Below, in pieces: positions 6,662-60,317 of a stretch of 64,000 nucleotides of DNA (its first letter is position 1; each line of letters opens with the position of its first letter). This stretch comes from Caldora sp. (GTDB lineage: Bacteria > Cyanobacteriota > Cyanobacteriia > Cyanobacteriales > Coleofasciculaceae). Location of the stretch: positions 161,053 through 225,052 of the forward strand of contig CBDCVG010000043.1 in NCBI GenBank assembly GCA_965222765.1, in the 5' to 3' direction. The position numbers and the translations under genes are program-made. The notes under the pieces were generated by a model. It did no database searches and was not told the origin of the DNA. It saw nothing but the letters and a program-made list of their open reading frames with translations.

Positions 6662-6713
6662 CCTCTTTTACGATATAGACAATGAGCCTGTGATCTAAAT
6701 CCAGTTTAACTAG

Positions 6714-6830
6714 ACTAGTACCGCTGCGCGGAATTAAGAATTAAGAATTAAGAATTAAGAATGCTTATAGTACGAGCAGAGTAAACTTCCTCAACTAAGT
6801 CTTCTGCCGTGCGTGGATCATCTTGCCAAG
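6714..6830 (+). mobile_element. MITE-like element, copy 1: left TIR ACTAGTACCGCTGCGCGG plus 4x AATTAAG; the right end is degenerate
   Basis: The left ~60 bp are identical to the elements at 20742 and 12941 (reverse complement). The right TIR is only partly recognisable (cttctgccgtgcg). It sits 53 bp upstream of the Uma2 start codon. Confidence 0.6.
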
Positions 6831-7041
6831 CTCCACATGTCTCTAAAAACATTTGCTGCTGTCAAGGATGAGAAATTTGCCAGCATCTCTGTTCGCTCCC
6901 AGTTTTCACTTTTTTTAACCACCAATTCCCAGACGACTGGCTAAACCGGGAGTCCAGGGGATAAGAGTTGCTGCCATCAAAAACAGTGCCAATAAAGCCA
7001 AAATTGCTCTAGTGTCATCCGGTTCTGTAATTTCATTAAGG

Positions 7042-10332: not shown

Positions 10333-10631
10333 TCTTGCTAAATTTATATAGTTGGGATCCTCTTCAATAAGCACTAAGGGCAAAGCGGTGTACCACTTTA
10401 CCTGCACCGAAGACCTAATATATGCTTCGGTTACCACTTGGAAAAAAGTTGCGGTTGTCAGGAATCTAGTACAAGAAGGCTCCAATGCAGAAGACTGTAA
10501 TGTTTATGGTATCTGCTTTTTTGCCTATCGTTAAGAAGCTTGATTATTTCCACCGTACTGCACTAGATAGCCACCTTGTAGCCTTATTGAGCGAGTCATC
10601 TGTTTATACCCTTACAAAACCCTTATTGTTG

Positions 10632-12707: not shown

Positions 12708-12828
12708 TAAACTTCCTTGAAATTTAATAAATTTTAAGGAAGAGTCTAACGAGTAGTTGTGAAAAAAATGTGAAAATCTAAGGACAAAAGATTAAAAAGC
12801 TTACCCTACAAGCATTCTGCCTTCTTAC

Positions 12829-12941
12829 ACTAGTACAGCGCGGCAGAAGTAACTAACCAGTTTGAGATCGATAGAATCCTTACTCTATAAGCATTCTTAA
12901 TTCTTAATTCTTAATTCTTAATTCCGCGCAGCGGTACTAGT
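12829..12941 (-). mobile_element. MITE-like element, copy 2 (113 bp, inverted orientation): TIRs ACTAGTACCGCTGCGCGG / CCGCGCTGYACTAGT flanking 4x AATTAAG
   Basis: The reverse complement is ~92% identical across its full length to 20742..20854. It ends 5 bp after the NB-ARC gene stop codon. Confidence 0.8.
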
Positions 12942-15159: not shown

Positions 15160-15696
15160 TCAGGCATTACCAGGAATCAAAAGCTCCATTGAAGTCATGA
15201 GAGTACTAAGTACAGAGGTTCTAAGATTAGGATTAACTATCACAATGGGAGGGCGATTACTCTCACTTACATAACCTAACTGGAGCGTAATTTCTTCTGA
15301 AGACAAGGCTCCTGAACAATCCATATGGGTTAAACCAATAATCATCGGTATTTCTACTCGCTGTTCCATAAACGAGAGAATTGAGCGAGCATAGGGGAAA
15401 TCATCAGGTCGATGAGCTGCTACCAACAGGATATAAGTCTGAGCATCTTGAATCAAAATATCCCACATGAAATCAAAGCGGGATTGACCTGGAGTACCGT
15501 AGATATGTAAATCAATATCAGGACCAAATGTAACTTTACCAAAGTCGAAAGCAACTGTGGTCTCTTCCTTATCTATGGATATTTCATCAGTAACAGTTCG
15601 TTCTATTTGTACAACTTCAATTTCACTGGCAGTTCGCACAAAGGTAGACTTTCCTGCTCCAACAGTCCCTGTTACTACTAAACGCATATTTTTCAT
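15160..15696 (-). CDS. Roadblock-associated small GTPase (COG2229 / conservon CvnD-like), copy 1
   Basis: The P-loop is GTVGAGKST, the switch II motif is YGTPGQ, and the NKxD equivalent is THMD. It is ~60% identical to the protein at 16313..16948. Confidence 0.75.
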   Translation of the reverse strand: MKNMRLVVTGTVGAGKSTFVRTASEIEVVQIERTVTDEISIDKEETTVAFDFGKVTFGPDIDLHIYGTPGQSRFDFMWDILIQDAQTYILLVAAHRPDDFPYARSILSFMEQRVEIPMIIGLTHMDCSGALSSEEITLQLGYVSESNRPPIVIVNPNLRTSVLSTLMTSMELLIPGNA

Positions 15697-15849
15697 GACA
15701 TTTTGCTCCGAAAAAATATTTGTTATTGGTTGTTTGTCTCAGCGTTAGTGTAGATATTTAAGGTAGATAGTGAAATAAACAAATAACCAACAACAAATCA
15801 CAAATACTTACTGCTACTATGGTTTCGATAGACAAGTAGCAAGGCTTAA

Positions 15850-16221
15850 CTAAGCTAATGCCGGCTTAAGCTCGGTAACAGTGCGTTTAATTTCTAACAT
15901 CAGCACTCCCTGCTTTGCTGCTTTACCAGCTAGTACGAGAAAGACTGCATCTTCACCACAACTAGTCAAAATGCTAAAGCCTTCATTACCCTCAACATAG
16001 ATGCGATCAATTGCACCCCGGACAAGTTCCTTTCCAATACGTTCCCCTAAAGAAAGCATAGCAGCCGACATAGCTGATACCCGTTCGTCATCCATACCAC
16101 CAGGTAAACTGGAGGCTAAGGGCAAACCATCAGGAGTAACCATTGCTGCTCCCTGAACATCACTAGTGCCAGTGACAAAGCTTTGTAATATCTGTCCAAG
16201 TTTTTCAGAATTGATTGCCAT
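15850..16221 (-). CDS. Roadblock/LC7 (MglB-like) domain protein, copy 1
   Basis: 123 aa reading ...GAAMVTPDGLPLASSL...AMSAAMLSLGERIGKEL...FLVLAGK..., a typical Roadblock fold sequence. It differs from 17344..17715 at only 2 of 123 residues. Confidence 0.8.
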   Translation of the reverse strand: MAINSEKLGQILQSFVTGTSDVQGAAMVTPDGLPLASSLPGGMDDERVSAMSAAMLSLGERIGKELVRGAIDRIYVEGNEGFSILTSCGEDAVFLVLAGKAAKQGVLMLEIKRTVTELKPALA

Positions 16222-16312: not shown

Positions 16313-16948
16313 TTAAAAATCTCGTGACAAAGATCTTGTGGATAATTGATAGGAATGTTTTGTCTGAGACTGAGCTGCTTGACTAACTGCTCGCCTCGTT
16401 ATCAATTGCTCAAAATTACATTGAGAAAGCATCAGAGCCATCGAAGCCATAACAGCTTCAATTACTGAATGTTTATCCCTAGGATTTACTCGCACAAACA
16501 GGGGTTGTTGTAACCTATTGATATAGCCCAGATTTAACATTATTTCTTCTGGAGCCTTTGCTTCTGGATAATCCATATGGGTTATACCAATAACCATTGG
16601 GATTTTGACTCGCTGATTCATAAACGTAATAATCTGACGAGCTTGGCGGAAATCATTGGGGCGGTGGGCTGCTACTAGCACAATATAAGTGTGAGCTTTT
16701 TGGATCAAAAAATCCCACATAAAGCTAAAGCGAGATTGACCGGGAGTGCCATAAATTTGTATATCCATGGCAGAACCAAATGAAATGCGACCATAGTCGA
16801 AGGCAACAGTAGTTTTTCTCTTAAGCTGGGCTGTTTCATCGGTAGCAGTGCGTTCTGTACTGATAGCTTCAATTTGACTAATTGTCTGCACAAAGGTAGA
16901 CTTTCCAGCTCCTGGAGTGCCAGCTACAACTAAACGCATAGTTTTCAT
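16313..16948 (-). CDS. Roadblock-associated small GTPase, copy 2, with a ~30-aa C-terminal extension
   Basis: The motifs are GTPGAGKST, YGTPGQ and THMD. The tail QCNFEQLITRR...SRDF is absent from copy 1. Confidence 0.72.
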   Translation of the reverse strand: MKTMRLVVAGTPGAGKSTFVQTISQIEAISTERTATDETAQLKRKTTVAFDYGRISFGSAMDIQIYGTPGQSRFSFMWDFLIQKAHTYIVLVAAHRPNDFRQARQIITFMNQRVKIPMVIGITHMDYPEAKAPEEIMLNLGYINRLQQPLFVRVNPRDKHSVIEAVMASMALMLSQCNFEQLITRRAVSQAAQSQTKHSYQLSTRSLSRDF

Positions 16949-17343
16949 TTGATTCTGCTCCGAAAGATTATCTAAAATTCATCCAACCAAATTAACTCGG
17001 TAACTAGGGAATTTTACATGGGGGTTTTAAACCTCCATGTAAAACCTAGTATCTATAGAAATGGAGAGCTCTTACTCCTAATGCTAATAACTAAAAAAAT
17101 GTTAACTATCAACCGTTAACTATTCACTGTTGAGACCATGCACCAATACTGAAATCTGGCAGAATCTTTGCCTATACCTAACCTAATTGAACTGATGGTA
17201 GTTACTGCATCAAACTTGAGCAATCAAACCTGTTAAGATGCATGGTAGTTCTACGTCAAGTCCACCTTAAATTCACTCTGATGACCAGATAATTGCTAAT
17301 TAATCGTTCCTCGATTAACCTACAAACAATTGGCTAGATTTAA

Positions 17344-17715
17344 CTAAGCTAAAGCAGGCTTAAGCTCGGTAAGAGTTCGCTTAATTTCTAACATTAGCAC
17401 TCCCTGCTTTGCTGCTTTACCAGCTAGTACTAGAAAAACTGCATCCTCACCACAACTAGTCAAAATGCTAAAGCCTTCATTACCCTCAACATAGATGCGA
17501 TCAATTGCACCCCGAACCAGTTCCTTTCCAATACGCTCTCCTAAAGAAAGCATAGCAGCTGACATAGCTGATACCCGTTCGTCATCCATACCACCAGGCA
17601 AGCTAGAGGCTAGAGGTAAACCATCAGGAGTAACCATTGCTGCTCCCTGAACATCACTAGTGCCAGTGACGAAGTTTTGTAGTATCTGTCCAAGTTTTTC
17701 AGAATTAATTGCCAT
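17344..17715 (-). CDS. Roadblock/LC7 (MglB-like) domain protein, copy 2
   Basis: ~93% nt and 98% aa identical to 15850..16221. Confidence 0.8.
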   Translation of the reverse strand: MAINSEKLGQILQNFVTGTSDVQGAAMVTPDGLPLASSLPGGMDDERVSAMSAAMLSLGERIGKELVRGAIDRIYVEGNEGFSILTSCGEDAVFLVLAGKAAKQGVLMLEIKRTLTELKPALA

Positions 17716-20549: not shown

Positions 20550-20741
20550 AATTTATTTTTGTTTATGGTAGAGCCGCTTTTTGCTAATGGCTAGTAGCTA
20601 GTTATTAGCAGAAAGCGGCTCCTAGTGTAAGAAGGCAGGAGGCAGAAGGCAGAAGACAGAAGGAAAAAAAGAGAGGTATTAAGCTGTTACGCATTTAAAT
20701 GATGAATTAGTACTGACGCCGGAACGCATAAATTAGGACTA

Positions 20742-20854
20742 ACTAGTACCGCTGCGCGGAATTAAGAATTAAGAATTAAGAATTAAGAATGCTTATATAG
20801 TAAGGATTCTATCTATCTAAAGCTGGTTGGTTATTTACGCCGCGCTGCACTAGT
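20742..20854 (+). mobile_element. MITE-like element, copy 3 (113 bp, complete): TIR + 4x AATTAAG + spacer + TIR
   Basis: ACTAGTACCGCTGCGCGG...CCGCGCTGCACTAGT; see copies at 6714 and 12829. Confidence 0.8.
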
Positions 20855-27780: not shown

Positions 27781-27857
27781 CAAGACTTACGAAAGTGGCG
27801 GGAAACTAATTTCTTCCGAAGTTTGGGAGGGATAGTGGTTCGCCACTTTTCATTTAT

Positions 27858-27997
27858 TCCATCTTTTTGAAGCACGGGAGCAAGATGCTCCCACTATTAA
27901 AGATTTTTCTTTCCCTCAATCGACACCACTCGACAAATCGCCGAAACCCTATATTTTTCCTTGAGTGGTGTCGATACCTTACAGGGAGAGAGTTTAT
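27858..27997 (+). repeat. Structured ~145-bp repeat R1 (contains the GGGAGCAAGATGCTCCC hairpin and a long imperfect hairpin TCAATCGACACCACTCGAC...GAGTGGTGTCGATA)
   Basis: ~90% identical to 28780..28927 in the same orientation. Confidence 0.8.
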
Positions 27998-28065
27998 CGA
28001 GATTTTCTCTTCAAGTAAACAATTAAAATAAATACAAGTATTTGCTTTGCCTCACAGCCAAAATC

Positions 28066-28299
28066 ATGCAAGTTATCATTCAACCTCCTTCCCTAATTGA
28101 AACCGGAATTAAAGTAGAAACTATCAACGGTTATCCGCTGTTCAAATTTACGAACTCACTTCAATCACGTTTAGAAACTCTTCTGGAAAAAAATCAAATC
28201 AATGCTTTAACTTCAGAAGAACAAGAGGAACTAAATGCCATTAGCGAACTTGATCGCCTCTTTACTTACTTAAACTCCCTGCTAATTGCTCAAAAATGA
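28066..28299 (+). CDS. Small hypothetical protein translationally coupled to the downstream HNH gene (ATGA overlap)
   Basis: 77 aa from the ATG at 28066 (a TTG at 28042 is also possible). Its stop overlaps the HNH start. Confidence 0.45.
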   Translation: MQVIIQPPSLIETGIKVETINGYPLFKFTNSLQSRLETLLEKNQINALTSEEQEELNAISELDRLFTYLNSLLIAQK

Positions 28300-28700
28300 C
28301 CATTACCGAAGCAACTCGCCAATATGTTAGACAACGTGCTAACTACCTTTGCGAATATTGCCACTCTCCAGAAGAAATCAGCACCTCTCGCTTCACAATC
28401 GACCACATTAAACCCCGTTCTTTAGCAGGTACGGATGATGTCAATAATTTGGCACTTGCTTGTAGCCGCTGCAATCAACGCCGTTACAATTTTACAGCAG
28501 GCAGCGATCTAGAAACTCAAGCAGAAGTTTCTCTATTTAACCCTCGAACTCAACAATGGAAAGAGCATTTTATTTGGACGAGGGATGGTATAAAAATTGT
28601 AGGAATCACCCCAATTGGTCGTGCTACTTGTAATCGCCTGGATGTGAACAACGAACGTTATCAAGGAGAGCGATCGATTCAGGAAGCACGAGCTTTATGA
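28296..28700 (+). CDS. HNH endonuclease (COG1403-type, the abundant cyanobacterial family)
   Basis: CEYCHSPEEISTSRFTIDHIKPRSLAGTDDVNNLALACSRCNQRRYN, then a C-terminal TPIGRATCNRL tail. Confidence 0.8.
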   Translation: MTITEATRQYVRQRANYLCEYCHSPEEISTSRFTIDHIKPRSLAGTDDVNNLALACSRCNQRRYNFTAGSDLETQAEVSLFNPRTQQWKEHFIWTRDGIKIVGITPIGRATCNRLDVNNERYQGERSIQEARAL

Positions 28701-28779
28701 ATGAAAGCAGGTTGTCATCCACACCCAGATGATCCAAAACAAACAGAAAGCCTGTAAGGAACTTCCAAATAAAAAAATA

Positions 28780-28927
28780 TTCCATCTTTCTGAAACAAGG
28801 GAGTAAGATGCTCCCACTACTATTAAAGATTTTTCTTGCCCTCAATCGACACCACTCGACAAATCGCCGAAACCCTTTATTTTTCGTTGATTGGTGTCGA
28901 TTTACCTGGCTTACAGGGAAAGAGTTT
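28780..28927 (+). repeat. Structured ~145-bp repeat R2
   Basis: See R1. The ORF 28808..29002 lies inside it and is judged spurious. Confidence 0.8.
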
Positions 28928-58785: not shown

Positions 58786-58847
58786 AAGTAAACATTTGCT
58801 AAAGTAATTCCTTGCTCTGTCTTTCTTACTGATATATTACTGAAACC

Positions 58848-60317
<1,470 letters not shown>

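Follow-up and report, generated by a model that had tools for sequence, protein, structure and literature searches.

The short repeats described here are found in the window, which is the whole 64,000-nt stretch of DNA that was analysed, and are best explained as copies of a non-autonomous MITE whose parents are insertion sequences (ISs) of the IS630/Tc1-mariner family, from a clade present in cyanobacteria, a reading to which we assign a probability of about 85%. A MITE had already been proposed in a sequence-only reading of this DNA, and the proposal is supported by homology of the element's ends to those of IS630-family ISs, by copies in many genomes, by the TA dinucleotides flanking the copies and by presence/absence differences between related strains. 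Judged on those properties that can be tested by sequence comparison, the element classifies as an IS630/Tc1-mariner-derived MITE. It is small (105-112 nt), non-coding, multi-copy and dispersed, and is ordinary mobile DNA with one mild twist, namely an expandable 7-base tandem repeat. Cyanobacteria are known as MITE-rich, and the general understanding of MITEs is unchanged by this element.

The proposed mechanism is that the two ends of the MITE are diverged copies of IS terminal inverted repeats (IRs), which would be bound by an HTH+DDE_3 transposase acting in trans and supplied by a complete IS located somewhere else in that genome or lineage. By analogy with known IS630-family members, this transposase would excise the element by double-strand breaks and insert it at TA, with a strong preference for CTAG and duplication of the TA. 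Replication slippage would make the AATTAAG array, which lies immediately inside the left end, grow, shrink and change its unit, which would explain both the copy lengths differing by multiples of 7 and the lineage-specific heptamers.

Copies in the window and their boundaries

Repeat stretches were read directly from the sequence at all three places where they had been reported, and the 18-mer ACTAGTACCGCTGCGCGG that marks their left end occurs three times in the window as against none in 100 shuffles. The two full copies lie at 20742-20854 on the plus strand (nhmmer E=6e-25) and at 12829-12941 on the minus strand (E=2e-24), and are 91% complementary over 117 nt, in agreement with the roughly 92% end-to-end identity claimed for them. 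Similarity between copies ends exactly at CTAG boundaries, beyond which the flanks are unrelated. The third copy (6714-6772, plus strand) comprises the left end, the heptamer array and the first bases of the central hairpin. It had been described as keeping its left end and heptamers, which is correct, and as having a decayed right end, which is not: 59 nt (6712-6770) are 100% identical to the full copies, whereas past about 6772 only scattered similarity is kept and the break is abrupt. Since an undecayed left part is thus joined to an unrelated right part, this copy is truncated or rearranged and not gradually decayed. A minus-strand open reading frame of 34 codons (6748-6852) runs into this remnant and ends inside it.

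Although three copies had been counted, a fourth and divergent family member is present at 10466-10566 on the plus strand (CTAGTACAAGAAGGCTCC...CCACCGTACTGCACTAG), detected at E=0.002 over positions 46-112 of an nhmmer profile of the family. This copy has a typical right end but a left end without the CGCTGCGCGG block, and it overlaps the first 27 codons of a mechanically called trypsin-like peptidase/TPR reading frame. The other three copies sit at gene boundaries as previously noted, with the 12829 copy 5 nt downstream of the stop codon of an NB-ARC/TPR gene, the 6714 copy 53 nt upstream of the start of a Uma2 gene (6661) and the 20742 copy upstream of a PAS/HisKA kinase gene. No transposase homologue was found in the 64-kb window.

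Terminal inverted repeats of 18 bp had been claimed for the element, but the ends pair perfectly over 7 bases (CTAGTAC/GTACTAG) and imperfectly, with a 3-nt bulge, further in; over their outermost 30 nt they agree at about 20-22 positions. The base preceding CTAG varies (A, G, C or T) in copies that do not carry the exact 18-mer, which places the A of 'ACTAGT' outside the element. ISs and MITEs both lie between CTAG...CTAG, which points to the outer ACTAGT being target plus TA duplication and not inverted repeat. The supposed 18-bp repeat is on this comparison most probably the target C, the TA duplication and 14 nt of IR, and the element proper would be about 105 nt long (GTACC...GYAC). With boundaries placed from the IS630-clade ends and the variable base outside CTAG, the 20742 copy would occupy 20746-20850 (GTACC...GCAC, 105 nt) and its flanking TA dinucleotides 20744-20745 and 20851-20852, inside CTAG at 20743-20746 and 20850-20853. 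The corresponding coordinates of the 12829 copy are 12833-12937 for the element proper and 12938-12939 and 12831-12832 for the flanking TA. The heptamer array of the 20742 copy (20759-20790, plus strand; GAATTAA x4.6, equivalent to AATTAAG) follows directly on the conserved left end, and that of the 12829 copy lies at 12893-12924 on the minus strand (ATTCTTA x4.6 when read on the plus strand).

Just upstream of the 20742 copy, the sequence at 20707-20738 (TTAGTACTGACGCCGGAACGCATAAATTAGG) resembles a solo inverted IS630-type end (TAGTAC...GCCGG...TAAAT); this end-like sequence was not detected by the profile search.

The family in cyanobacteria and its parent insertion sequences

A scan of species-representative genomes (596 Gb) for the exact left 18-mer returned at least 99 sites in at least 52 assemblies, all of them cyanobacterial among the matches listed, where a random 18-mer would be expected by simple arithmetic about 17 times. 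The carriers among the matches listed include many genera of Nostocales, Symploca/Moorena/Caldora, Pleurocapsales, Xenococcus, Hydrococcus, Chroococcales and Leptolyngbyaceae. At least 12 exact sites were found in Symploca sp. SIO2C1, the closest relative of the window, and the family as a whole is carried by at least 52 genomes, which answers the earlier suggestion to count copies genome-wide. In several genomes near-identical copies occupy unrelated loci (at least seven in one Rivularia chromosome), giving genome-specific subfamilies. No exact match to a 17-mer was found in viral contigs.

The architecture is the same in every listed match, with the 18-mer followed by one to eight heptamers, a short central hairpin and a conserved right end (...GCTTTATTTMCGCCGnnCTGTACTAG). 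The heptamer unit is lineage-dependent, AAGTCAA being the commonest and AAGTAAA, AATTAAG, AATTAAA, AATTCAA, AATTTAG and AAGTCAG also occurring. When right ends were sought within 400 nt of 103 left ends (the 99 listed loci and those of the window), a recognisable one was found for 66. Copies are most often 112 nt long, and of the 52 short ones 37 have a length in the series 91/98/105/112/119/126, which rises by one heptamer at a time; longer copies contain other small repeats nested inside the heptamer array. Almost all near-full copies are intergenic (75 of 77), and their orientation relative to the flanking reading frames is random (14/14/14/10).

In a search anchored on the left end, many copies of the left 18-mer break off at differing internal points (about 59-90 nt) and have no right end, among them retrieved loci L002, L012, L026, L048, L051, L093 and L099 (Symploca SIO2C1) as well as the window copy at 6714.

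The likely source of the element was recognised through its right end. A BLAST search of plasmids with a Nostocales copy returned unannotated full copies together with several solo matches to the last 24-39 nt, one of which, on plasmid pBOCT2 of Brasilonema octagenarum, lies directly after an annotated IS630-family transposase gene. The right end of the Nostocales consensus matches the terminus of this IS at 24 of 24 nt, and the other end of the IS (1324 bp in length) is an inverted copy of the matching end. The IRs (left GTACAGCACGGCGTAAGTTAACCAGG, right CTTGGTTTATTTACGCCGTGCTGTAC) match at about 27 of 30 positions and are flanked by TA on both sides (AC-TA-[IS]-TA-GT). The IS contains two reading frames, corresponding to HTH_32/HTH_23 and DDE_3 (Pfam, E=3e-31), and a run of C between them resembles a frameshift site. 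Homologues of the transposase number in the thousands, many of them intact at about 400 aa, and those named come from Nostoc, Halotia, Brasilonema and Woronichinia.

Four more ISs of this clade (55-87% transposase identity, including metagenomic contigs) were read end to end and have matching ends, three of them bounded by CTAG...CTAG and the Nostoc edaphicum copy by GTAG...GTAG. The full-length autonomous transposon with matching ends that had been proposed as a check is thus provided by IS630-family ISs (the pBOCT2 element and four others). The right ends of the window copies match the IS IRs at 24-25 of 30 positions and the left ends at 20 of 30. No IS was found with the exact conserved left end of the MITE (GTACCGCTGCGCGG plus heptamers), which agrees with known IS IRs at about 20 of 30 positions. 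The genomes in which both IS and MITE were seen are those of Nostoc flagelliforme CCNUN1 and Halotia wernerae, neither of them a Symploca. The near-absolute CTAG...CTAG flanks, together with the many intact 400-aa transposases, make this a tractable bacterial system of the Tc1/mariner type.

Target site, mobility and competing explanations

All 66 complete copies (listed loci and window) carry TA directly outside GTAC...GTAC at both ends, a target-site signature that had been sought and was previously concealed within the claimed terminal repeat. In 62 of the 66 this TA lies within CTAG. The rare variants, namely TTAGTAC on the left side and GTACTAT or GTACTAA on the right, alter only the outermost C or G and keep the TA. 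Head-to-tail neighbours at retrieved loci L066, L084 and L099 share one ACTAG, as would be expected of a later insertion into the CTAG that an older copy re-creates at its end. IS630-family elements insert at TA and duplicate it, and IS630 favours TA in CTAG (PMC2170065, citing Tenzen & Ohtsubo 1991).

The closest match to the window is contig JAAHGL010000274.1 of Symploca sp. SIO2C1, at about 95-97% identity; other Symploca assemblies reach about 82-88%. Orthologous loci were compared in SIO2C1, SIO2E6, SIO1C2 and in four more assemblies. SIO2C1, SIO1C2 and a third Symploca genome have no element at the site corresponding to the 12829 copy, and SIO2C1 carries (CTGCCTT)n and other arrays there. 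The 20742 copy is likewise missing from its counterpart site in SIO2E6 and four further assemblies. Both full copies in the window are presence/absence polymorphisms. No precise empty site was found at the orthologous Symploca loci, the flanks being in hypervariable heptamer arrays or rearranged DNA; the junctions are blurred by the surrounding heptamer arrays, which are entirely different from strain to strain. When plasmids were searched with flanking sequence from three Nostoc MITE copies and from the Brasilonema IS, only filled or unrelated sites came back, loci reached through a Nostoc Uma2 neighbour gave rearranged contexts, and no nested insertions were detected by BLAST among all loci retrieved. 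The TA duplication is accordingly inferred from the behaviour of the IS630 family.

At the spot in SIO2C1 orthologous to the 20742 copy (retrieved locus L101, 8690-8866), there is an insertion with a reading frame (..PWYSDIYSQVLQDVVKRVKVSFD) resembling the N-terminus of IS605-type TnpB/OrfB, and the SIO2C1 contig ends inside this IS605/TnpB-like insertion (orthologue of window ~20700). The heptamer arrays at orthologous intergenic sites are wholly different in unit and length between Symploca strains, while the flanking genes are 82-97% identical. Such turnover is seen at window 12780-12828 and 20620-20680 and in the orthologous intergenic regions of L101, L105 and L106, with the units AGAAGGC, GGGGAGGT, GAAGACAAG, CAATTCY and GGGAGTA, so that the spacers change very fast.

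These data bear on two other accounts of how the repeat became dispersed. A non-mobile segmental duplication, which the sequence-only reading had itself named as the alternative, or a conserved intergenic motif copied by recombination, might be thought of from the window itself, where there are only three or four copies, one of them partial. However, the copies cease to resemble one another exactly at CTAG, and the element is found at no fewer than 99 unrelated loci in at least 52 genomes and is missing at orthologous sites in sister strains. The unrelated flanks and the orthologous absence of both full copies exclude segmental duplication, to which we attach a negligible probability. Somewhat more credible, but still very improbable, is a MITE of another superfamily (IS5/PIF-Harbinger-like, for instance), starting at TACC and duplicating CTAG (4 bp) or CTA/TAG (3 bp). 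CTAG is palindromic and present at both ends, so sequence alone cannot tell how many bases were duplicated, and the loci examined yielded no empty site. Nevertheless, the sole full-length elements with such ends encode HTH+DDE_3 transposases of the IS630 family, a family which duplicates TA (PMC2170065), and the variants in which the outermost C or G is changed but TA is kept fit a 2-bp duplication in a CTAG that is preferred but not obligatory.

A further alternative accepts MITE-like spread but treats it only as the vehicle of an exapted or functional hairpin, formed by single-stranded DNA or by a strand-specific RNA and kept by selection, which could act as a regulator, as a processing or stability element or as a protein-binding platform of heptamers. 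All copies fold into a long imperfect hairpin (z ~ -2.9 for the window copies), and in the central 9-bp hairpin 78.8% of cells pair as against 35-58% when the partners are slid, with modest covariation (13 double-sided changes, a number also attained in 8 of 500 shuffles). Among 49 unique full copies the plus strand folds better as RNA (mean -2.85 kcal/mol; 33 copies versus 16; Wilcoxon p=4e-4), concomitant with 201 G-U pairs on the plus strand versus 118 on the minus strand. In addition, expression effects on recF/recO have been reported in a preprint on Nostoc 7120 for heptamer arrays including (TTCAAAA)3, the unit of one MITE variant (bioRxiv 10.1101/2022.06.06.494920). However, a palindromic structure is expected of any MITE made of two inverted IS ends, and the phylogenetic relatedness of the copies means that shuffle statistics overstate the support. 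The plus-strand bias is not predicted for purely selfish DNA, but the copies are non-independent, and their relatedness together with a purine-rich left and a T-rich right arm could cause the bias, making it only a hint. Orientation relative to neighbouring genes is random (the 14/14/14/10 split given above), no promoter-like or terminator-like site lies inside the element, RNAalifold gave no consensus structure in the 3' 74 nt, and the covariance models of Rfam 15 gave no match at gathering score or at E<=1, so that a curated RNA family was rejected. Both selection for such a structure and any of the roles just named are considered quite improbable, and a MITE of the IS630/Tc1-mariner family is preferred.

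Heptamer arrays, related elements and other features

By TRF the window holds about 30 arrays with a period of 7, built from many different units, of which three (GAATTAA) lie in MITE copies and about 27 outside. The suggestion that STRR-like arrays in this genome may be MITE cargo is accordingly true of three arrays, which are a small share (3 of about 30). Within the MITE, the array stands where the IS IR reads GTAAGTTAAC, and the right arm of the MITE (TTTATTTAC) is a degenerate inverted copy. The position of the array at this IR segment and the degenerate inverted copy opposite it suggest that the heptamer arose by tandem duplication of the inner IR segment. The family offers a specific source for one class of the heptamer arrays located near promoters and start codons, and bears on reports linking arrays to expression.

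In Nostoc 7120, (TTCAAAA)3-4 arrays are described upstream of 21 genes including recF, and contiguous heptamer arrays affect the expression of recF and recO, in a preprint that leaves transposons unmentioned (bioRxiv 10.1101/2022.06.06.494920). The unit TTCAAAA is the AATTCAA variant of the MITE heptamer. If these arrays are MITE copies, they should be preceded by CTAGTACCGC...GCGG and followed by ...TTATTTMCGCCGnnCTGTACTAG. More speculatively, and with less expectation of being right than wrong by a wide margin, the MITE may create STRR-like arrays from its own IR segment and spread them beside genes, some 'regulatory' arrays (those of recF and some 20 other Nostoc 7120 genes) being copies of it and strand-biased folding pointing to exaptation as RNA or single-stranded DNA.

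Small elements also appear to target heptamer arrays. Downstream of Uma2 in three lichen-associated Nostoc genomes (L123, L124 and L127), insertions between 25 and about 130 nt long break up AATTACG arrays; these insertions differ in size at one locus in close relatives and represent a further case of this kind. In the window, a dispersed repeat of about 102 nt (1226-1327 and 38190-38291; 84% identical) contains the hairpin TCATCCTGAGCGnTAGCGAAGGA, and its copy at 38190-38291 abuts a heptamer array at 38293-38336. The hairpin resembles units of 22-23 nt (ACCCTGAGCGCAGTCGAAGGGT) that are nested in MITE heptamer arrays elsewhere (L017, L064, L069 and L086).

Among known systems, MITEs of the Stowaway type, or Tc1/mariner-derived MITEs, are short, palindromic, non-coding, TA-flanked and presumed to be mobilised in trans. 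The element resembles them as a short palindromic, non-coding, TA-flanked derivative for which mobilisation in trans is presumed. However, Stowaway-type MITEs belong to plants and animals, whereas this element is bacterial, has an internal microsatellite-like array and shows the very strong CTAG preference noted above (62/66). With ISs of the IS630 family (IS630 of Shigella and ISY100 of Synechocystis PCC 6803; Tc1/mariner superfamily) it shares homologous ends, TA flanks and the CTAG context, but the MITE is 105 nt long without an open reading frame, has a left end diverged from that of the ISs, and contains a tandem heptamer array where the ISs examined have none.

The classical STRR units are CCCCAGT, TTGGTCA and CAACAGT. 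STRR heptamer arrays and small dispersed repeats are reported from heterocystous cyanobacteria, and the arrays described here are likewise tandem heptamers in intergenic DNA; as for small dispersed repeats, very small hairpin units are nested in MITE heptamer arrays in other genomes. Identity with classical STRR arrays was rejected, as the units are AATTAAG here and AAGTCAA, AAGTAAA, AATTCAA or AATTTAG elsewhere, with only the period of 7 in common. Unlike STRR arrays, those of the MITE are bracketed by transposon ends.

Nezha, a MITE of Anabaena variabilis and Nostoc (Zhou, Tran & Xu 2008), is described as about 130-170 bp long with ISNpu3-type ends, the reference copy having a 10-bp direct repeat (CATTATCTAC). 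It is likewise a cyanobacterial MITE with terminal inverted repeats that lies between genes, is predicted to fold into a stable hairpin and is present in some relatives but not in others. Its length and direct repeat set it apart from the present element, which is 105-112 nt long and has no direct repeat beyond CTAG. A MITE containing a minisatellite has been reported from Porphyromonas gingivalis (PMC4596501) and is similar in having an internal tandem-repeat array but differs in phylum and repeat unit and in its unrelated parent IS, whereas here the 7-mer abuts the terminal repeat. REP/REPIN sequences, characterised as palindromes of 20-40 bp tagged GTAG or CGTC and associated with a RAYT gene (PMC3733652), were rejected since the termini here (CTAGTAC/GTACTAG) are without a GTAG/CGTC tag and the partner found is a DDE transposase.

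Among the papers searched, none was found with the end sequence of the element in this context, and an earlier description under another name is possible. The family can be masked or labelled in the annotation of cyanobacterial genomes, where it explains some contig breaks and part of the variable intergenic DNA.

Several other features of the window were recorded. Direct repeats of about 120 nt (27855-27975 and 28778-28901; 89-95% identical) bracket a two-ORF cassette encoding 85 aa and 134 aa, the latter with CxxC...HNH-like motifs (28296-28700), and the whole (27855-28901) may be a small mobile or duplicated cassette. A gene pair encoding a Roadblock/LC7 protein and a small Ras/Arf-like GTPase is tandemly duplicated (15271-16131 versus 16523-17625), with segments 92% and 74% identical, and the duplication is kept in all Symploca relatives retrieved. 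Finally, a TPP riboswitch (RF00059) is predicted at 58844-58939 on the plus strand, with 66.4 bits, above the gathering score.
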